Shown piece after piece: positions 9,321 through 46,730 of a stretch of DNA of 64,000 bases. Position numbers and translations under genes: made by a program. The notes under the pieces are model-generated. The model made no database searches. It was given only the letters and a program-made list of their open reading frames with translations, and was not told the DNA's origin. Every line of letters starts with the position of its first letter. Position 1 is the first letter of the stretch. Source of the DNA: Chiloscyllium plagiosum (taxonomy: Eukaryota); the NCBI RefSeq assembly GCF_004010195.1, contig NC_057718.1, positions 100,420,965 to 100,484,964 on the forward strand. Direction: 5' to 3'.

Positions 9321-9599
9321 CCGTGAACTACTCAATGCTTCAGGATATTTTGAGTTTGTGAAAGTTTCTTTATAAATACAAATTATTTTGACCAAAAGGT
9401 CGTTCACTCCCAGCTGTTCACACCCATTGTATTTTATTTCTGTATGTTACGTTGAAATTGTGTGGAAATCTGTAATGCAGTAGCTGAGGTAACATTTTCA
9501 TCCTCCCTGAATGCGCTTTCACTTTTCACCCCGAAACACTTTCTCTTTGTCCTTTGCTGCTCTTATGTGCGGATGCAGCAAGAAGTTAGAAAGGGAGTC

Positions 9600-11597
9600 C
9601 AGGTTGTTCTGCTATAACGCAACAGTTGTATTCCTCTGTAACCTCGCGCTGTAGAAAATAGCACAGGAGAATATTGATCTGTAGAAAATCGCACAGGAGA
9701 TAATCGAACTGTGGAAAATCGCACAGGAGGAAATTGTGCTGTGGAAAATCGTGCAGGAGAAAATCGCACTATGGAAAATCGCGCAGGAGGAAATCGCACT
9801 GTGGAAAATCGCGCAGGAGGAAATTGCACTGTGGAAAATTGCGCAGGAGGAAATCGTGCTGTGGAAAATCGTGCAGGAGGAAATCACACTGTGGAAAATC
9901 GCGCAGGAGGAAATTGTGCTGTGGAAAATCGTGCAGGAGGAAATCGCACTGTGGAAAATCGTGCAGGAGGAAATCACACTGTGGAAAATCGCGCAGGAGG
10001 AAATTGTGCTGTGGAAAATTGCGCAGGAGGAAATCGCACTGTGGAAAATCGTGCAGGAGGAAATTGCACTGTGGAAAATCATGCCGAAGGAAATCGTGCT
10101 GTGGAAAATCGTGCAGCTGGAAATCGTGCTGTGGAAAATCGCACTGTGGAAAATCGCACTGTGGAAAATCGTGCAGCAGGAAATCGTGCAGGAGGAAATC
10201 ATGCTGTTGAAAATCGCGCAGGAGGAAATCGTGTTGTGGAAAATCGTACAGGAGGAGATTGCACTGTGGAAAATTGCGCAGGAGGAAATCGTGCAGGAGG
10301 AAGTCGTGCTGTGGAAAATCGCGCAGGAGGAATTCGCATTGTGGAAAATCGAAAATCGCGCAGAATGAAATCGTGCAGGAGGAAATCACGCAGGAGGAAA
10401 TTGCACTGTGGAAAATCATGCAGGTGGAAATCGTGCTGTGGAAAATTGCGCAGGAGGAAATCGTGCTGTTGAAAATTGCACAGGAGGAAATCGCGCAAAA
10501 GGAAATCGTGCTGTAAAAATCGCGCTGGAGGAAATCATGCTGTGGAAAATTGTGCAGGAGGAAATCGTGCTGGAGGAAATCGCACTGTGGAAAATTGCTC
10601 AGGAGGAAATTGCATTTTGGAAAATCGCGCCGGAGGAAATCATGCAGTACGAAATTTTGTTGGAGAAAATTGCGCAGGAGAAAATCATGCTGTAGAAATC
10701 GCGCAGGAGAAAAACGTGCTGTAGGAAATTGCACTGTGGGAAATCGCGCAGGAGAAAATCACACAGTGGAAAATTGCACAGTAGGAAGTCGCGCAGGAGG
10801 AAATGGCGCTGTGGAAAATCCCGCAGGAGAAAATGGCGTTGTGGAAAATCCTGCAGGAGAAAATGGCGTTGTGGAAAATCCTGCAGGAGAAATCGCGCTG
10901 TGAAAAATGGCGCAGGAGAAAATTGCACTGGAGGAAATTGACCTGAATAAAATTGCGCTGGGGAGAATTTGCGCTGGGGAGAATTTGCGCTGGGGGGAGT
11001 TTGCACTGGGGAGAATTTGCACTGGGGAGAATTTGCGCTGGAGGAATTTGTGCTGGGGGGAATTTGCGCAGGGGAAAATCACGCTGCAGGGAATTGTGCA
11101 GGAGGAAATGGTGCTGTACACAATTGAGCAGGAGGAATCTGCGCAGGAAGAAATTGCACAGGGGGATATTACACTGTGGGATATTGGGCAGGTGAAAATT
11201 GCACAGGAGGAAATTTGCAATGGAGGAAATTGCGCTGCAGAAAATCGCACAGGGGAAAATCATGCAGTAGGAAATGGCACAGTGGAAAATCACGCAGTAG
11301 AAAATCATGCAGTAGTAAATCAGGTAGGAGGAAATCGCACCGTACAAAATCATGCAGGTGAAAATCGAGCTGTACAAAATAGTGCAGGAGAAAATTGCAC
11401 TGTAGGAAACTGCGCAGGAGGAAATCGTGCTGTGGAAAATTGCGCAAGAGGAAATTGCGCAGGAGGAAATCGTGCTGTGGAAAATTGCTCCACCCAATCA
11501 GGAGAAAGTTCATGTTATCCAAACAATATCCGCAATTCGACAATTGTGTTATAGCCAATTCGCGCTGACAAAACACGCGTTATACAAGAACAACCTG
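9600..11597. mobile_element. Tc1/mariner-pogo-type MITE hosting an expanded satellite
   Basis: TIRs caggttgttctgctataacgc (9600-9620) and gcgttatacaagaacaacctg (11577-11597), followed by TA; homologous to the 214-bp copy at 35332-35545. Confidence 0.85.
9645..11490. repeat. 15/30-bp satellite, consensus GTGGAAAATCGCGCAGGAGGAAATCGCACT
   Basis: Directly visible array; 30-mers built from two 15-mers; 16-bp G-rich variant near 10955-11070. Confidence 0.97.
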
Positions 11598-11640
11598 TAC
11601 AAATGTTGTTTAGTTGCAAGGGGGTAAGGAAGATAAGACT

Positions 11641-11782
11641 AGGAGAATGTGAGGACTGCAGATGCCGGAGATCCGAGTCAAAGAGTGCGATGCTGGAAAA
11701 GCACAGCAGGTCAGGCAACATCCGAGGAGCAGGAGAGTTGATGTTCTGGGCATAAGCCCTTCATCAGGAAGAGTTCCTGATC
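11641..11782 (-). mobile_element. Short PLE-terminus element (family A)
   Basis: gagaatgtgaggactgcagatgc...gggcataagcccttcatcagg. Confidence 0.75.
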
Positions 11783-14831: not shown

Positions 14832-15724
14832 TCTAATGAAAATAAGCAATTACTTTGAAAAGTCCTTTGACACATCTCCTTGGTGGAGCACTGTACCTTA
14901 AACATCCTCATAGCGAGTGCTTCCGAAACTGTTAGCCACTGTGGCCCCATTTCTGTGCTTTGTGACTGAATTCTGGCCCCTCGGTGAGGTCTGTGTATGC
15001 GGGGGACTGGGGTAGAGAGTGGATGTGTGAGGAGTATAGGGTGCAAGATAGAGCCCATAGAGAGTGCGGGAGGTACCAGGGACAGTGGGTACTGTAACTG
15101 TAGACGGTACATCTGCTTTTGAACTCAGCCAGAGCTCGGCAGTGGCCAATAGCTGCCTCCGAACTTGGTCTTCCAAGATTTTAACTTGGGCCCCCCCCCC
15201 AGCCCCCCATTGGGAGGACCCTTGCTCTAAGCCACCGCATGAAGATGACTGGGATGTGATGTCCAAGAGTTTAATGTCTTCCTTCGTCTGAAGTCTAGGA
15301 GGTAGCTATGTGTGCAATGGGTGCCAAGAAAGAAAGGGAAATAGTGGTAAACAGAAATTATAGCATGTGTAATGAAATAATTTGGGTTAAATAGTTCTCA
15401 TATTTTGTGGAGAAGGCATTACATCACATCCTAATTACGGGACCTTGTTCTTTTTCTTTGAACGTTTTCTTCAAACAGACTTAACAAAAGTATAAACCCA
15501 CATTTATGCAACAGTTCTATAATTAAATCTCCCTCTGCTCACAGCTGGATTAGAAGCCATCCGCACAGAAATATGCAACACCATTGAGGCCATCTCTTCT
15601 TTCTAATTAAATTTACCCAATTCTTCATTTGGTTAATGTGTAATCTCTAGAAAGAAATGTCTGATTTGCTGCAGCATCTTTCATGCTGTCAGGAACTACA
15701 CAGCCCACAAAGTGCTTTTGAGGT

Positions 15725-17322
15725 GTAGTCACTGTAGTTAGTGTAGTCACTGGAGTCACTGTAGTTACTGTAGTTACTGGAGTCATTGTAGTTACTGAAG
15801 TCACTGTTACTAGAGTCACTGTAGTTACTAGAGTTACTGTAGTTACTGGGGTCACTAGCTACTGGAATCATTGTAGTTACTGTAGCTACTGGAGTCACTA
15901 GTCACTGGAATCACTGTTGTTACTGGAGTCACTAGTCACTAGAGTCACTGAAGTTACTATAGTTACTGGAGTTATTGTAGTTATTGTAATTTCTATAGTT
16001 ACTGGGGTCACTGTAGTTACTGGAGTCACTGAAGTTACTACAGTTACTGGAGTCACTGGAGTTACTGTAGCTACTGGAATCATTGTAGTTACTGTGGTTG
16101 TCATGTTACTGGAGTCACTGTTGTTACTGTAGCTACTGGAGTCACTAGTCACTGGAGTCACAAGTTACTTTCCTGAAGAAAGGCTTATGCCCGAAACGTC
16201 GATTCTCCTGTTCCCTGGATGCTGCCTGACCTGCTGCACTTTTCCAGCAACACATTTTCAGCTCGGAGTCACAAGTTACTATAGTTACTGGAGTCACTGT
16301 TGTTACTGTAGTTACTGGAGTCATTGTAGTTATTGTAATTTCTATAGTTAATGGAGTCGCTGCAGCTACTACTGTAGTTAATGGAGTCACTAGTCATTGG
16401 AGTCACTGTAGTTACTATAGTTACTGGAGTCACTGTTGTTACTGTAGTTACTGGAGTCATTGTAGTTATTGTAATTTCTATAGTTAATGGAGTCGCTGCA
16501 GCTACTACTGTAGTTAATGGAGTCACTAGTCATTGGAGTCACTGTAGTTACTATAGTTACTGGAGTCACTGTTGTTACTGTAGTTACTGGAGTCATTGTA
16601 GTTATTGTAATTTCTATAGTTAATGGAGTCGCTGCAGCTACTACTGTAGTTAATGGAGTCACTAGTCATTGGAGTCACTGTAGTTACTATAGTTACTGGA
16701 GTCACTGTTGTTACTGTAGTTACTGGAGTCATTGTAGTTATTGTAATTTCTATAGTTAATGGAGTCGCTGCAGCTACTACTGTAGTTAATGGAGTCACTA
16801 GTCATTGGAGTCACTGTAGTTACTATAGTTACTGGAGTCACTGTTACTGTAGTTACTGGAGTCACTGGAGTCACTGTAGTTACTGGAGTCACTAGTCACT
16901 GGAGTCACTGAAGTTACTATAGTTACTGGAGTCATTGTAGTTATTGTAATTTCTATAGTTACTGGGGTCACTGTAGTTACTGGAGTCACTGGAGTTACTG
17001 TAGCTACTGGAATCATTGTAGTTATTGTGGTTGTCATTGTTACTGGAGTCACTGTTGTCACTGTAGCTACTGGAGTCACTAGTCACTGGAGTCACAAGTT
17101 ACTATAGTTACTGGAGTTGCTGTTGTTGCTATAGCTACTGGAGTCACTGAAGTTACTGGAGTCACTGTAGTTACTATAGTTGCTGGAGTCACTGGAGTTA
17201 TTGTAGTTATTGTAATTTCTATAGTTACTGTAGTTACTATAGTTACTGGAGTCACTGTAGCTGCTAGAGTCACTGGAGTCACTAGTTACTGTAGTTTTTG
17301 GAGTTACTGTAGTTACTGGAGT
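15725..17322. repeat. 9-bp satellite (GTYACTGKA) with a 136-bp higher-order repeat
   Basis: gtcactgga/gttactgta units; four 136-bp copies start at 16275, 16411, 16547 and 16683. Confidence 0.97.
16170..16264 (+). mobile_element. 95-bp hammerhead-bearing PLE-terminus insertion (family A)
   Basis: ttcctgaagaaaggcttatgcccgaaacgtcga...; perfect 16-bp TSD ggagtcacaagttact at 16154-16169 and 16265-16280. Confidence 0.9.
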
Positions 17323-17594
17323 TCTTGGCAGCCAGTTTTGTGCGCAGTCAGCTCCAACAAGTGGCAGTGGGTTGGCGATCCGATCCTCAGTTTCAGTTGT
17401 GTTAGTTGAGGGATAAATAATGACCAGTACTCTGCAGAGACCTCCCCCATCTCCCTCCCCCACCGCCAGCCACCTCTTCCAGTGCTCACGTCAATTTGAG
17501 AGGGCTCATTTTAATGACTCATCTGAGAAACCCGGTACGTACAGCACTGCAGCACTCCCTGGCGACATTGTCTTGTTCTTTTTTTCTTAATTTA

Positions 17595-23412: not shown

Positions 23413-26400
23413 TGCCTCCACCACCTCCACTGCAGCTTATTCCATACATGCAGCATCAGCTGTGGATTTCACTGTTTTCTTGGACTGAGTTCCAGTGTCC
23501 AGAGACGCTTGTAACTCTTGAACAGCCTCGTAGGATGAGAATCACTGCAGGTCTGGTAGTATCTGTGGAAGGAGAAACAATTGATTGTTTTGAGTCTGAC
23601 ATGACTTTTCTTCAGAACTTTTCTTTCATTTCCTATCTGGTCGGGTCTACATGTTACTCCAGGCCCACAGTGATGCGGTTTATTCCTAACCGCCCTCTGA
23701 AATGGTCAAGCACGTCACTCAGTTGAAGAAAATCAGGAATGGGCAACCAATGCTGGCCTTGGCCTGTGATGCGGAGGTCCCACGAAAGAAGGAAAAAGTA
23801 AATTTTTCGAGAGCGTCTTAAAGGAGGAAAGAGAAGCTGAAAAGTTCAGGGAGTGAACTGTGGATCTTAGAGCCCAAGCAACTGAAGACGTGACCACCAA
23901 TGATGGAGCAACCTAAATCAGGAGTGCTTGAGGGGCCAGAATTGGACCGACACTGAGCCACTGTTCGGTAGTGTTTCCCAAACTTTCCCCACTGTGAGCT
24001 CATATCGAAGCTCGAAAATTGTTGGGAGCCATCAGTGAGAGCTCAGAGTGCAGAGTGGGTGGGTGGAGGTGTTGGGGTTAGAGTCAGGCCCTGTCAGAGT
24101 AAACGCAAGGCCGTTATAACTCAACGGGATCGCGATTTCAGCTTGTGACCCTACTTGGGGTCCTTAACCCTTCCGCTCTGGGATGGCCTTCTCTGAGGGT
24201 GACGGAGGTGTTTACAGGATTGAGGAGGGGTGGGGAACTGGGGAGGGTGGGGGGGTGATAGGGAACGTTGAGGCTGTGGCCGAATTACTAAACGAGGATG
24301 ATGGTTTTATAAATGTGAGACATTGCTCGAGGAGTGTAGACCAGCCAATAGCGGGGTGAGAGGAGTTCAGGACCGAGAGTGGCAGAGTTTCTGATGACCC
24401 CCAGTTTATGAAGAGTAAAACTTGGGAATGTGCAGAGTTATCACATTAACTCAAGGGAGGGTATTTACTTAAGAGCAGTGCACAAAGGAAGAATAAATGT
24501 ATGTAAAACTCTAAAGTTACCCAGCTCAACCCACCAAGCACGCTCATTGCTACATACTGAAATCCTCAAAGTACATATAGTGTTACATAATGATATCTAC
24601 GGAATGTACCTTTTTAGATAGTTTGTCACTGTTTAATCTCAAGAGTGTGCTGATATAGCATGCTGAGTTGTAGCTCACATTGCTCTAGATGGTGCACTCA
24701 AAGAAATTACCTGAAATGTGAAAGTTAAAAATCTTTCAGCATGCAGGAGCGATTTCAGTTCCAGGACATTTTGATCAAAAACATGTTGAGGTTGTGACAA
24801 TATTCATCACAATAGAGCCACTTTTGTGCTATTGTTTTTGTATTAATCTTTCCTGCAGTAACACTCTGGGTCCTCTAATGTGAAAACGTTGTTCGGCTAA
24901 ACCTTTCCAATTTGTTGCGTGCAGCCCCTAATAATTGGCGGGACATATCCCATGAGGTTATGGATGTACTTTCTTAAAACTCCATCCAAAGATGTTGCAT
25001 TCATTGACGGGCAGATTGATGGAGACTGTACAACACTATTTCAGGTACCTCACGGTGTGCCAGGACACAAAGTAATCATTCCCCGTTGTTTTACTTGGCA
25101 ATGTCAAACCTTTTGAGGGGTAGGGTATCGGATTTGTACCAAAAGTAATAAGGACTGACGCCAGGAAATGGTTTATGTATCGTTTACATCAGGCTTTATA
25201 AATCTGCAGGATTCCTGTCGTGAGGGGCAGTGAAGGGGAGGGGGTGGGGGGGTTATTTTTCTTTTTGACATTTCTGGAAAGGTTTCAAGCTGCTCGATAG
25301 TTCTCATGGACACAGTCGACTACGTGTTCCCAGATCGAATGGGCAGGTTCTAACTCTGGATGGACCGAGGTTAGGAGGGGATGCGATGTGTGTGTGTGTC
25401 TGTGTCTGTGTGTTTGTGTGTCCTGATCCCACCACACTCTGAGAACTCCAGAGGCTTGCTGGACCAACGTTGTCCACATTCGCTCTTGCCAATTACAGGT
25501 AGCGACTGGATTCCCAGTCAGAGGGGCATGCGGGCTGCCTTTTGTGAACTGCAGACTCCTTCCAACCACCACACCCCCCCCCCCCAAACCCCATCCCTCC
25601 CACACCTCCAATTGTCTGAGCAGGGCCTGTCCCCACATTTCCCCACCCCTCCCTCAGCCTGCATCAGGGAGACCATCTCCATTAAGCTTCCTGTCTCCTT
25701 GCAGTCCAAGGGACCATTGCCATCAATGCTTTAATATCACTCCTAACCAGGCCTCAGTTGTGTGAACTAGCTGCCTTGTCTGCATGGTAAGCAACGGTGT
25801 CAAAAGCATGAATAAAGTGTTAGGTCTTAAACAATCAAGGGGTACAAGGAGAAAGTGAGGATATGTTGTCAAGATAGAGGATCAGCCATGGTCAGATTAC
25901 ATGGTGGAGCAGGCTTGAAGGGCCGAATGGCCTAATCATGATCCTAGTTTTTAATAAAATGACCGTTACCAGCTCCATCAAACCACCATCACCGAGCTGG
26001 TACAACTCAATGTTTCATACCCACTGTCAACCTGTATGTTTATAATATGTTTAAAGGCAGGGTTCATGTGTGGAATGAACTTTCTGGATGAGGGGACAAT
26101 TACAGCATTTGAAAGACATTTAGATAAGTACACAAATAGGAAAGGTTTAGAGGGATATGGGCCAGGAGCAGCATTTGAGACTAATCTAGTTTTGGTTGAT
26201 GTTCAGCATGGACTGATTGGACTGAAGCACCTGTTTTCATGCTGTATGACTCGAGATGCATTTTTAGTTTGGACTGGATATGCAAACTGTACTCTCCTAG
26301 AAACCTGGCTGTTAAATTTCAGGGGTTGGCTAATTGGCCCTACCGTTTCTCATTCTGTGTTTGGGCTTTTTGAATTTCATCGGGTCTGGTGCTTTGCAAA

Positions 26401-27239
26401 TGGCTGTTCTTTGCATTTTCCATCATTGGGTGAATCCTACATCACAGCACTGTGAACCACTCTGTTCGTAGAATTATTGAGGAAAATCTAGATTTAGTCA
26501 AGTTTAAACATCTCCTTGATTGAAAGGGACTTTGGTGACAGAGCTCAATCCGTCAAAAGTAATCATGGAAGTTTGGGCTTTTTGAATTTCATCGGGTCTG
26601 GTGCTTTGCAAATGGCTGTTCTTTGCATTTTCCATCATTGGGTGAATCCTACATCACAGCACTGTGAACCACGCTGTTCGTAGAATTATTGAGGAAAATC
26701 TAGATTTAGTCAAGTTTAAACATCCCCTTGATTGAAAGGGACTTTGGTGACAGAGACACCCCAGGGCTCAATCCGTCAAAAGTAATCATGGAAGCTTTGG
26801 GCCGTTTGTAAGCACAGCAGATAAAGAATAATTGAAATTGCATATGTGGTCTATGAGGATCTCGTAATGGATCTGTGGCTTCCAAAGATGAAAGGCTTGG
26901 ATGTTCCTGAGTTACATGGTGCTGGCAGTAATACTGAATGTTTTCACCAAAATGGAACATCCTTGCCAACATTATTCCTTCAAAATCTGACCACTGCTCC
27001 TCAATTTGCTTAAGCTGCTGTTGAGCTGTGACTGCTCTGGAAATGCCACTCACCGAAAGAAGGAAAAAATGCTCAGGATCCAATCACAGCGACCAGAATG
27101 CTGATCCTTCCAAGGATCTGTTGAGAACGAAGGGATTGCCTCTTACTGGGTGGGAGGGTCGGGGTTTGGTTGGTGGTGATTGGTGCAGATACATGAGATT
27201 CATCCAGATTTTACATTCAGTCGCTTTCTGTCCCATTTA

Positions 27240-35279: not shown

Positions 35280-35870
35280 CATTGAGATTGAGGGGGTGAC
35301 CTTATAGAGGTTTGTAAAATCATGAGTGGTACAGGGTGATCTAGTATCACACAACAGTTGTGTTTCTCTGCAACCTTTTGCCATAGAAGATTGAGCTATG
35401 GAAAACCGCTATAGAAAGTCATGCAGTGGAAGATGCTGTACTCATTCAGCAGAAGGTTTGCATTGTCCAAACAATGTCCACAATTAGTCAATCGTGTTAC
35501 AGCCAATTCACATTAACAAAACGCACGTTATACCAGAACGACTTGTATAGATAAGGTGAATGGCAGGTAACTTTTCCCGAGGGTGGGGTATTTCAAGACT
35601 AGCAGACATTTTTAAGGTGAGAGGAGCAAGATTTTTAAAAATACATTAGGGGCAATTTTTTTGTGTGGTTTGTGTGTGGAATGAACTTGCAGAGAAAGTG
35701 GTGGATGCGGGTACAGTTGCGTTTAAAAGATATTTAGTCAAGTTCATGATTAGGAAAGGTTTGGAGGGTTATGGGCCAAGCGCAGGCAGGTGGGAGTACT
35801 TCAGTTTGGGATTATGGATGGCATGGACTGGTTGGACCAAGGGGTCTGTTTTCGTGCTGTGTGACTCTAT
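35280..35870 (+). mobile_element. CR1/HER1 3' fragment interrupted by a MITE
   Basis: ggggtgaccttatagaggtttgtaaaatcatgagtggTA|...|TAtagataaggtgaat; later encodes VWNELAEKVV. Confidence 0.85.
35332..35545. mobile_element. 214-bp MITE, unexpanded relative of 9600-11597
   Basis: TA TSD (35330-35331, 35546-35547); shares aacagttgt..tctctg.aacc and tccaaacaat.tcc.caatt...gtgtta.agccaattc with the expanded copy. Confidence 0.85.
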
Positions 35871-42704: not shown

Positions 42705-43640
42705 GGATCAGTGGTGCTGGAAGAGCACAGCAGGTCAGGCAGCATCCGAGGAGCAGGCAAAATCGACGTTTCGGGCAAAAGCCCTTCATCAGGAATAAAG
42801 GCAGAGAGCCTGAAGCGTGGAGAGATAAGCTAGAGGAGGGTGAGAGTGGGGAGAAAGTAGCATAGAGCACAATAGGTCAGTGGGGGAGAAGATGAAGGTG
42901 ATAGGTCAGGGAGGAGAGGGTGGAGTGGATAGGTGGTGGGAGGGGGAGTTGAAATGTTGGGCCACTGGGCGATTTGGTTGATTGGTGCGGGTGTCTCGGA
43001 GATGTTCCCTAAAGCGCTCTGCTAGGAGGTGTCCAGTCTCCCCAATGTAGAGGAGACCGCATTGGGAGCAACGGATACAATAAATGATATTAGTGGATTT
43101 GCAGGTAAAACTTTGATGGATGTGGAAGGCTCCTTTAGGTCCTTGGATGGAGGTGAGGGAGGAGGTGTGGGCGCAGGTTTTACAGTTCCTGCGGTGGCAG
43201 GGGAAAGTGGCAGGATGGGAGGGTGGGTCGTAGGGGGATGTGGACCTGACCAGGTAGTCACGGAGGGAGCGGTCTTTGCGGAAGGCGGAGAGGGGTGGGG
43301 AGGGAGATATATCCCTGGTGGTGGGGTCTGTTTGGAGGTGGCGGGAATGTCGGCGGATGATTTGGTTTATGGGAAGGTTGGTAGGGTGGAAGGTGAGCAC
43401 CAGGGGCGTTCTGTCCTTGTTACGGTTGGAGGGGTGGGGTCTGAGGGCGGAGGTGCGGGATGTGGACGAGATGCGTTGGAGGGCATCTTTAATTACGTGG
43501 GAAGGGAAATTGCGGTTTCTAAAGAAGGAGGCCATCTGGTGTGTTCTGTGGTGGAACTGGTCCTCCTGGGAGCAGATACGGCAGAGGCGGAGGAATTGGG
43601 AATACGGGATGGCATTTTTGCAAGAGATAGGGTGGGAAGA
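42705..43640 (-). mobile_element. Neptune-type Penelope-like element, 3' part (Cys linker, GIY-YIG endonuclease, terminus with HHR)
   Basis: ORF 42906-43535 contains PLVLTFHP, CHRRNCKTC and NIIYCIRCSQCGLLYIGETG...RFREH; the family A terminus follows. Confidence 0.92.
42761..42796 (-). ncRNA. Minimal type I hammerhead ribozyme motif (intact core)
   Basis: Minus strand AUUC-CUGAUGA-A-GGGC-UUUU-GCCC-GAAAC-GUC|GAUU, in sense orientation to the PLE ORF. Confidence 0.8.
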
Positions 43641-44116: not shown

Positions 44117-44508
44117 ATAGAGTCATAGAGATGTACAGCATGGAAACAGACCCTTCGGTCCATCCCGTCCATGCCGACCAGATATCCCAACCCAATCTAG
44201 TCCCACCTGCCAGCACTCGGCCCATATCCCTCCAAACCCTTCCTATTCATATACCCATCCAAATGCCTCCTGAATGTTGCAATTGTACCAGCCTCCACCA
44301 CATCCTCTGGCAGCTCATTCCATACACGTACCACCCTCTGCGTGAAAAAGTTGCCCCTTAGGTCTCTTTTATATCTTTCCCGTCTCACCCTAAACCTATG
44401 CCCTCTAGTTCTGGACTCCCCAACCCCAGGGAAAAGACTTTGCCTATTTACCCTATCTATGCCCCTCATAATTTTGTAAACCTCTATAAGGTCACCCCTC
44501 AGCCTCCG
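44117..44508 (-). mobile_element. CR1/HER1 3' fragment (well preserved)
   Basis: ORF 44197-44469 contains RTRGH...RGNFFTQRVVRVWNELPE. Confidence 0.92.
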
Positions 44509-44822: not shown

Positions 44823-46730
44823 CACCTAGGGGCCAGCGACCATAATTCTATTAGTTTTAACATAGTGATGGAATAAGATAGACCAGATCAAACTGTTGAA
44901 GTTCTAAATTGGAGGAAGGCTAATTTTGATAGTATTAGGCAAGAACTTTCAAAAGCTGATTGGGGACAGATATTCGCAGGTAAAGGGACGGCTGGGAAAT
45001 GGGAAGCCTTCAGAAATGAGATAACGAGAGTCCAGAGGCAGTATATTCCTGTCAGGGTGAAAGGAAAAGCTGGTAGGTGTAGGAAATGCTGGATGACTGG
45101 AGAAATTGAGGGTTTGGTTAAGAAAAAGAAGGAAACATATGTCAGGTATAGACAGGATAGATCGAGTGAATCCTTAGAAGAGTATAAAGGAAGTAGGAGT
45201 ATACTTAAGAGGGAAATCAGGAGGGAAAAACAGGGACATGAGATAGCTTTGGCAAATAGGGTTAAGGAGAATCCAAAGGGTTTTTACAAACACATTAAGG
45301 ACAAAAGGGTAACTAGGGAGAGAATAGGTCCCCTCATAGATCAGCAAGGCAGCCTTTGTGTGGAGCCGCAGGAGATGGGGCAGATACTAAATGAGTATTT
45401 TGCATCAGTATTTACTGTGGAAAAGGACATGGAAGATATAGAATGTGGAGAAATGGATGGTGACACCTTGAAAAATGTCCAGATTACAGAGGAGGAAGTG
45501 CTGGCTGTCTTGAAATGCATAAAAGTGGATAAATCCCCAGGACCTGATCAGGTGTGCGCTAGAATTCTGTGGGAAGCTAGGAAATTGATTGCTGGGCCCC
45601 TTGCTGAGATATTTGTATCATCGATAGTCACAGGTGAGGTGCCAGAAGACTGGAGGTTGGCAAACGTGGTGCCACTGTTTAAGAAGGGCGGTAAAGACAA
45701 GCCAGGGAACTATACACCGGTGAGCCTGACCTCAGTGGTGAGCAAGTTGTTGGAGGGAATCCTGAGGGACAGGGTGTACATGTATTTGGAAAGGCAAGGA
45801 CTGATTAGGGATAGTCAACATGGCTTTGTGCATGGGAAATCATGTCTTACAAACTTGAATGAATTTTTTGAAGAAGTAACAAAGAGGTTTGATGAGGGCA
45901 GAGTGGTGGACGTGATCTATATGGACTTCAGTAAGGCATTCAACAAGGTTCCCCATGAGAGACTGGTTAGCAAGGTTAGATGTCATAGAATACAGGGAGA
46001 ACTAGCTATTTGGATACAGAACTGGCTCAAAGGTAGAAGACAGAGGGTGGTGTTGGAGGGTTGCTTTTCAGACTGGAGGCCTGTGACCAGTGGAGTGCCA
46101 CAAGGATCGGTGCTGGGTCCACTATGTTTTCTTATTTATATAAATTATTTGGATATGAACATAGGAGGTATAGTTAGTATGTTTGCAGATGACACCAAAA
46201 TTCGAAGTGTAGTGGACAGTGAAGAAGGTTACCTCAGAGTACAACGGGATCTTGACCAGATGGGCCAATGGGCTAAGAAGTGGCCGATGGAGTTTAATTT
46301 AGAAAAATGCGAGGGTATGAGCTAGAAAGAGAGGCTAGAAAAGCTCAAGTTATTTTCTCTGGAGTGCTGGAGGCTGAAGGGAGACGATAGAAGTCTATAA
46401 AATTATGAGATGCAGCGATAGGGTTAACAGTCAGAATCTTTTTCCAAAGGTGAAATGTCTAAAAACAGGGGGCATGCATTTAAGGTGAGAGGGGGAAAGT
46501 TCAAAGGAGATGTGAGGGGCATGTTTTTTTACAACAAAGAGTGGTAGGAGTGTGGAACGTGCTGCCGACAGGGCATGGGGGGTGTTTAAGGGGCTTTTAC
46601 ATAAGAATAAGCAAGTAATGGAGGGATATGGACAGGCAGAAGGGGTTAGTTTAATTTGGTCTCATCTTTGCTACAACATTGTGGGCCGGAAGGTCTGTTT
46701 CTGTACTGTGCTATCCTGTTCTATGTTCTC
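44823..46730 (+). mobile_element. Truncated CR1/HER1 LINE ORF2 (RT domain) joined to a CR1 tail
   Basis: ORF 45057-46325 contains KSPGPD, PLFKKG, QHGF, DFSKAF, GVPQGSVLGP and FADD; SDHN endonuclease end upstream; the sequence jumps to the tail near 46314. Confidence 0.95.

Follow-up and report, generated by a model that had tools for sequence, protein, structure and literature searches.

Chiloscyllium plagiosum DNA at this locus carries a long tandem array enclosed between transposon ends, which raises the question of whether the array is a satellite able to move or a repeat that grew where it lies. The window, i.e., the whole stretch of 64,000 nucleotides analysed here, contains the array within an element of 1998 bp (9600-11597) and also holds a related element of 214 bp at 35332-35545. 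The initial annotation described a satellite born inside a MITE and possibly mobile in its own right. The best explanation is most probably a different one, namely that the array multiplied in place, after insertion, inside one copy of an old MITE family, and we classify it as a single-locus minisatellite inside an old pogo/Tigger-like MITE. The mobile or regulatory satellite, the striking part of the first reading, failed testing. The long element and its immediate flanks are composed as follows.

9598..9599, forward strand: left flank dinucleotide TC, at the place of the TA expected as target duplication
9600..9620, forward strand: left TIR of 21 bp, beginning with CAGG, identified by inverted-repeat search and comparison with the family
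9621..9644, forward strand: left subterminal arm, which together with the TIR is identical to the short copy at 36 of 45 positions
9645..11485, forward strand: tandem array of 123 units of two mostly alternating types, obtained by tandem-repeat parsing
9720..10079, forward strand: most homogeneous block of the array, a strict 30-bp dimer with 0.8% non-CpG divergence from the unit types
10954..11079, forward strand: sub-array formed by a 16-bp, G-rich unit variant in the part of the array that looks oldest, recognised from the repeat parse and the divergence profile
11486..11576, forward strand: right subterminal arm, with more copies of the TIR inner motif at 11511 and 11545
11577..11597, reverse strand: right TIR, which departs from the family majority at 11585 and 11586
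11598..11599, forward strand: right-end TA; paralogous reads and contigs diverge at 11599-11600 into unrelated flanks

The two TIRs (9600-9620 and 11577-11597) are complementary at 19 of 21 positions, in agreement with the earlier statement that TIRs of 21 bp bracket the array, and the top pair of the region in the inverted-repeat search had 24-nt arms with 88% complementarity. The array is surrounded by a 45-bp left arm, including the TIR, and a 112-bp right arm, which are 77–80% identical to the 214-bp element. A lack of alignment between these flanks and the short MITE had been named as a possible refutation; both flanks align, the left one at the 36 of 45 positions given above and the right one with 77.8% identity over 108 bases (E = 2e-20 in the 64-kb window). 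When the window was scanned with the TIR pattern, allowing up to three mismatches, four matches were obtained versus 0.10 expected; three of them are ends of the long and short elements, and the left end of the short copy was missed. At both positions where the right TIR departs from the family majority, the left TIR in reverse complement has the majority letters. The long copy is bordered by TA at the right and TC at the left.

The short copy and its surroundings contain the following features.

35330..35331, forward strand: left TA of the short copy
35332..35545, forward strand: short family member of 214 bp with TIRs complementary at 13 of 21 positions
35377..35434, forward strand: four degenerate units (15, 15, 13 and 15 bp) in the place where the long copy has the array
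35546..35547, forward strand: right TA of the short copy
44145..44498, reverse strand: unsplit paralog of the repeat hosting the short copy (empty site), found by sequence match

The short copy is TA-flanked on both sides, as had been claimed. It interrupts a LINE-like 3′ fragment, presumably of CR1, and the uninterrupted paralog of this fragment at 44498-44145 on the minus strand represents an empty site. The TIRs of the short copy are far more decayed than those of the long copy (13/21 versus 19/21). Its units match the array in place, phase and orientation, and three of them score 6.5, 2.8 and 13.3 bits on the array-unit profile, with which five background windows elsewhere in the 64 kb, counting the two strands, exceed 12 bits. 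Nothing corresponding to the unit type with the CAGGAGG core is present in the short copy. The initial annotation took the middle of the short copy for the recognisable seed of the array. The homology of the units supports this in part (13.3 and 6.5 bits), but, to judge from the comparison, the short copy is an old paralog, 20–23% diverged, and not the literal seed. Similarly, the proposed amplification of about nine-fold agrees with the length of the array (9.3-fold), but counted in units the expansion is about 30-fold (123 versus 4).

The presence of units in both copies bears on the possibility that an independent satellite or minisatellite was inserted into the MITE or captured by it, according to a model reported for miDNA4 in the available text of PMC12628747. 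For the shark element, such a capture seems highly improbable, since related units are found in the short copy at the same place, in the same phase and orientation, and the array unit is rare elsewhere: the window has 1–3 matches per unit type at three mismatches, and the read depth is that of a single array. The same rarity and the same depth do not fit the idea that this repeat is common without the TIRs, an observation that would have spoken against its origin in the element.

The dispersed family was studied using the probe 11426-11638, which consists of the last four units, the right arm and 41 bases of flank, and was aligned at 80% likeness to four data sets, namely the raw reads X19 and the contigs X1 from organism A, the contigs X5 from organism B and the contigs X8 from organism C; runs X6, X7 and X9-X14, which have small word shares, do not enter the results. 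The alignments comprised 254 reads and 661, 656 and 469 contigs of X1, X5 and X8, respectively, and the family was found in all three organisms in hundreds of copies. Read depth reached a peak of 199 on the right arm versus 1 on the flank. The reads total 1934 million letters, i.e., 0.48-fold coverage of a genome that we assume to be 4 Gb in size, so that the copy number amounts to about 400 for the peak depth and about 160 close to the TIR, both values being lower bounds because of the 80% likeness cut. Beyond 11599-11600, the loose ends of the aligned sequences agree at only 0.37–0.43, so the copies have unrelated flanks. It had been proposed to collect the copies of the family and to look for expanded versions at several loci; the copies gathered from reads and contigs are indeed dispersed with different flanks, but an expanded version with the two unit types of this array was not seen at several loci.

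Most of the reads (242 of 254) are less than 90% alike to the long copy and 3 of 254 are at least 95% alike. The former value indicates that the family is old and decayed, and the latter reveals no recent burst. Family copies differ from each other by 15–23%. Read depth is about 67 at 11498-11505 but drops to about 3 at 11426-11465, which means that most copies are without the array's units. Before the right arm, the consensus of the other copies is a CTATAG-type unit, as in the short copy, and not one of the two array types (30-letter loose-end consensuses among the rows listed). The family possesses the TIRs, the TA target duplication, the absence of coding capacity and the many dispersed copies of a MITE family; high uniformity among copies, another MITE feature, is lacking, as the 242 reads below 90% demonstrate. 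The size of MITEs, about 100–800 bp according to the available text of PMC12054243, fits the 214-bp copy and not the 1998-bp copy. Among the papers listed in the literature search there was no description of this shark family, which is apparently undescribed in cartilaginous fish; Dfam, Repbase, subscription journals and bioRxiv supplements were outside the search, so a library name may exist.

The array at 9645-11485 has a length of 1841 bp as assembled and contains 123 units, 110 of them of 15 bp, 8 of 16 bp, 4 of 14 bp and 1 of 7 bp. The units are of two types, recognised by a CTGTGG or a CAGGAGG core, and since these alternate in most places the array is mainly a 30-bp two-unit repeat. Non-CpG divergence from the nearer unit type is distributed unevenly, from 0.8% at 9720-10080 to 5.5% and 10% in the middle and 15–19% at 10950-11410, with 1.8% in the final five units. 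This variation along the array, from 0.8% to 19%, points to growth in layers rather than in one event. Self-comparison of the left block gives an identity of 0.61 at a lag of 15 bases, 0.87 for 30 and 0.92 for 90, and a 90-bp duplication is located within the block (9885-9974 versus 9975-10064, identical at 88 of 90 positions, decayed CpGs included). The left block has two differences in 264 sites, and the corresponding probability for the time after the split of organisms A and B is 0.006–0.24 depending on the rate assumed, which is no more than suggestive of a recent turnover of this block, after the split. The G-rich 16-bp variant has made its own run of about eight units, an example of how the insertion of one base can give rise to a new unit locally.

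Since the length of the array is known from the assembly alone, an inflation of this length by an assembly artefact was considered. Its probability appears negligible: the units are diverged, the best ungapped self-match over 90 bases is 88/90 and 13 units have lengths other than 15 bp. An array of such units is neither a collapsed nor a duplicated copy of a perfect repeat. The direction of change is a separate matter. A contraction, in which the ancestor had a long repeated interior and the short copies are deletion products, would be in line with the fact that MITEs often arise by internal deletion, and two copies alone give no direction of change. However, the depth of about 67 next to the array as opposed to about 3 on its last units means that most copies are without the units, the CAGGAGG-type unit is missing from the short copy and the left block, diverged by 0.8% versus 15–23% among family copies, was formed after insertion. 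Contraction is accordingly most improbable, and multiplication in place after insertion is preferred.

A hairpin-driven expansion was rejected as the reason why this particular copy expanded, as the array showed no excess folding in comparison with shuffled sequences on either strand (z = 0.21 and 0.88). A coding role of the array was rejected as well. Two array reading frames had no Pfam match, frame P0001 had no homologue among 30 candidates (145–462 residues) and the 13 units of lengths not divisible by three break every reading frame of the array.

The history of the insertion was traced in organism B. One contig of this organism covers 11493-11638, which includes 41 flanking bases outside the TIR, and differs at 10 of 146 positions, whereas the other 23 of the 24 matches listed show 15–24 differences in 101–122 bases and end at or near the TIR. 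Judging by this one contig of organism B among the matches listed, it is the orthologous insertion, and the element was probably in place before the split of A and B. The right flank was covered by no contig of organism A (X1) or organism C (X8), and no piece among the matches listed spans the whole probe 11426-11638. Runs built from the two array unit types also occur in contigs of organisms B and C. The contigs presumably originate from this locus, and they suggest an expansion that had already started by the time of the split.

Read depth on the last units of the array is about 3. A simulation with this array in 150-base pieces predicts 1.3–4.0 under nine alignment settings, the calibration being made with BLAST and not with the aligner used on the reads, which filters records. 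A single array thus fits the observed depth, and there are at most 1–5 such arrays; this count refers to the two unit types of the probe, which is blind to arrays built from other unit variants (e.g., CTATAG-type) at other copies. Contig depth over the last units corresponds to one to four single-copy contigs.

These results decide against a mobile satellite, i.e., an expanded element that kept its TIRs, transposes as a unit and carries the array to several loci. Such an element would be consistent with the TIRs, which are complementary at 19 of 21 positions and better than those of the short copy, with the length of 1998 bp, which lies within the 1.2–5.2 kb range of pogo elements in the available part of PMC7386202, and with the upper bound of five arrays, reached under the least sensitive simulation. 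It is nevertheless very unlikely, because the same insertion is present in organism B, the depth fits one array, the left TA is mutated, the right TIR is off the family majority at 11585 and 11586 and the three reads in 254 at or above 95% likeness reveal no recent burst. Young near-identical copies were not conspicuous. The earlier proposal that the satellite itself might be mobile is hence not sustained; the repeat shows no sign of spreading, and the expanded copy stayed in place. The term satellite is not appropriate either. Classical satellites form long, abundant arrays, often without transposon ends, while here the array has 1841 bp and, to judge from read depth, occurs once or at most five times. 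Its 123 units of about 15 bp, above microsatellite size, agree with the description of minisatellites in the available text of PMC6947457 (unit above microsatellite size, about 100 units, dispersed locus).

The CpG richness of the array reported in the initial annotation was confirmed. The observed/expected ratio is 1.04 in the array versus 0.31 in the rest of the window, an effect of the CGCG with which every unit begins; of the 220 CpGs that the unit consensus predicts, no more than 84 are still present. CpG-type transitions are found at 122 of 440 bases (28%), although these changes are not independent events because the array duplicates, and three non-CpG C or G positions show 7, 3 and 1 transitions of 110. 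The paralogous arms have a value of 27% at eight CpG bases, and the similarity of the two values indicates that protection of CpGs in the array does not exceed that in the family at large. The CpG decay would be consistent with germline methylation. The dozens of TGGAAAA words mentioned earlier are also real: 33 were counted, all of them derived from the unit sequence as part of one unit type. We take this word to be NFAT-like.

The CpG ratio and the 33 words might indicate a regulatory element that the host has co-opted and retained as a CpG-island-like group of NFAT-type sites, and the presence of arrays with both unit types in contigs of organisms B and C could be understood in the same way. 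We give this reading very little credence. Unlike in an unmethylated island, CpG decay equals that of unrelated copies (28% versus 27%), the G+C content is 47.6% and the TGGAAAA word just belongs to one of the unit types. In addition, no Pfam family was found in 132 frames of at least 55 residues from the non-repetitive parts of 1-32000, a result that is compatible with small exons or an intronic position; with the other two frames, the scan for host gene context within 1-32000 comprised 134 candidate frames and gave no Pfam match. Rfam gave 0 matches in the window. Nothing points to a regulatory role.

The multiplication of the array in place may have proceeded as follows. An old non-autonomous family with TA targets and short CAG-starting TIRs (pogo/Tigger-like) has spread through a shark lineage; to judge from the ends, a pogo/Tigger-like transposase would once have moved the element of about 200 bp into TA sites. 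The interior of the element would have carried a few direct units of 13–15 bp containing CGCG, i.e., a ready substrate. After insertion, these units could have multiplied by replication slippage or unequal exchange, mechanisms of tandem-repeat formation that are reviewed in the available text of PMC6947457. The order of growth would be from the 15-bp unit to the 30-bp pair of two variants and, lately, to 90-bp blocks. The outcome is a single-locus minisatellite of 123 units, probably methylated, with CpGs decaying as elsewhere in the family, in a copy that appears to have been immobile since before the split of A and B. This is a clear case of a tandem array born in a DNA transposon, where the steps of growth can be followed and an unexpanded copy lies at a distance of 24 kb, and it can be used as a teaching or test case. 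It leaves existing knowledge unchanged, arrays inside MITEs having been described in frogs, molluscs, insects and plants.

The source of the unit itself was also considered. The first array unit and the TIR inner motif have 8 of 10 bases in common, in the orientation of the right-arm repeats. The score of this match is equalled by 293 of 2570 background windows and is not significant. A regular expression of the motif gave three matches in the right arm versus 0.10 expected, which is not a fair test because the motif was picked after looking. The derivation of the array unit from the putative binding motif of the TIR is therefore no more than a lead. In a broader reading, which we regard as rather unlikely, the family would be a recurrent minisatellite nursery, in which the unit copies the transposase-binding motif and independent, locus-specific arrays exist at many of the hundreds of copies. 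If true, hundreds of dated orthologous copies in slowly evolving sharks would constitute a series for the birth of minisatellites and higher-order repeats (15 to 30 to 90 bp).

The shark element was compared with known systems, and the likeness to miDNA4, Xstir and DTC84 noted below refers to the layout as described, not to the sequence. In miDNA4 of Xenopus tropicalis (Scalvenzi and Pollet 2014, via the available text of PMC12628747, PMC9659126 and PMC12054243), 61% of the copies hold one motif. Like the shark element, miDNA4 is described there as a vertebrate MITE, of Tc1/mariner type, with a motif present once or a few times in most copies and arrayed in some, in the order TIR, repeats, TIR; the internal unit in the shark is likewise present in the short copy and arrayed in the other (4 versus 123 units). 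The same sources describe many multi-repeat copies of miDNA4 and propose repeat capture and the seeding of TIR-free satellite arrays, whereas in the shark one array of its type is evident, the 15-bp unit is native and no TIR-free arrays were seen. The Xmix MITE/Xstir system of Xenopus (Hikosaka and Kawahara 2004, via the available text of PMC12628747 and PMC9659126) also features a tandem repeat made from internal MITE sequence, and forms with the MITE and with the MITE plus array coexist. However, Xstir is reported to form free arrays too, explained by the joining of two neighbouring elements, while in the shark the growth concerned a short unit enclosed by a single pair of arms. The MITE flanks of DTC84 from the clam Donax trunculus serve as a cassette for variable internal repeats with distinguishable variants, according to the available text of PMC3879986. 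DTC84 differs in having an AA target duplication, a microsatellite and no more than five core repeats, while the shark family has TA ends and one of its copies contains 123 short units. Tetris of Drosophila virilis is another DNA transposon giving building blocks of tandem arrays, but it is described as a foldback element, a TIR-derived repeat of which became a satellite (PMC4079207 and PMC9659126, available text).

The ends of the shark element were used for its classification. A TA duplication and a short CAG-starting TIR are common to other IS630-Tc1-mariner groups and alone do not place an element. Pogo/Tigger elements (Gao et al. 2020, PMC7386202, available part) have a TA duplication, a TIR of at most 40 bp and a CAG start, as found here, and CAGGT is found as a TIR motif in oyster and beetle elements listed there. 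The single cartilaginous-fish row seen in the available part of that survey, Rhty-Tig1B, has a different TIR. In the accessible content of supplementary files 3 and 5 of PMC7386202, four TIR probes of 10–12 bases had 0 matches, and none of the listed matches of shorter probes was a matching TIR; no transposase with these TIRs was found in the window or in these supplements. The ends hence appear pogo/Tigger-like, membership being defined by the transposase (DD29-56D). In Emigrant/Lemi1 of Arabidopsis, a pogo-type MITE, the inner half of the TIR is repeated subterminally (PMC1636448, available text), similarly to the motifs at 11511 and 11545. Binding of the Lemi1 transposase to the subterminal motifs was shown for Emigrant, while the shark motifs are putative sites recognised by their sequence.

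The exact 23-base TIR pattern had 0 matches in metagenome contigs, and a looser 19-base pattern matched 14 metagenome loci and one viral locus. These 15 loci were rejected as relatives and treated as chance matches, since none has matching arms and one has a weak inverted partner. Two of the metagenome contigs (L004, 445-463, and L013, 1009-1027) contain the same stretch starting with an exact match to the 19-base pattern, lacking an inverted partner or arm; it is probably due to chance, or possibly the end of an unrelated animal transposon.

The window contains several other repeats and open frames. A dispersed repeat of about 130 bp, with more than 20 partial matches in the 64 kb, starts about 40 bases to the right of the long element (11634-11782). 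A reverse-strand open frame of 244 residues at 42909-43640 has a weak GIY-YIG match (E = 9e-5) and is presumably a piece of a Penelope-type retroelement; the only other CpG-rich 500-base bin in the window, 43001-43500, is located at this frame. The forward-strand frame of 482 residues at 44877-46325 carries a reverse transcriptase domain (E = 1e-28) and belongs to a LINE fragment. Young tandem duplications are found at 26359-26755 (212 bp, 1.9 copies, 98%) and 2262-2353 (30 bp, 3.1 copies, 100%). A second long array, with a 9-bp unit and about 180 copies, extends over 15724-17323. It includes a 136-bp higher-order repeat at 16274-17003 (5.4 copies at 93%). At 16170-16264 a fragment of a common dispersed repeat, 95 bp long, breaks the array, and a direct repeat of 16 bp lies on the two sides of the fragment (16154-16169 and 16265-16280).
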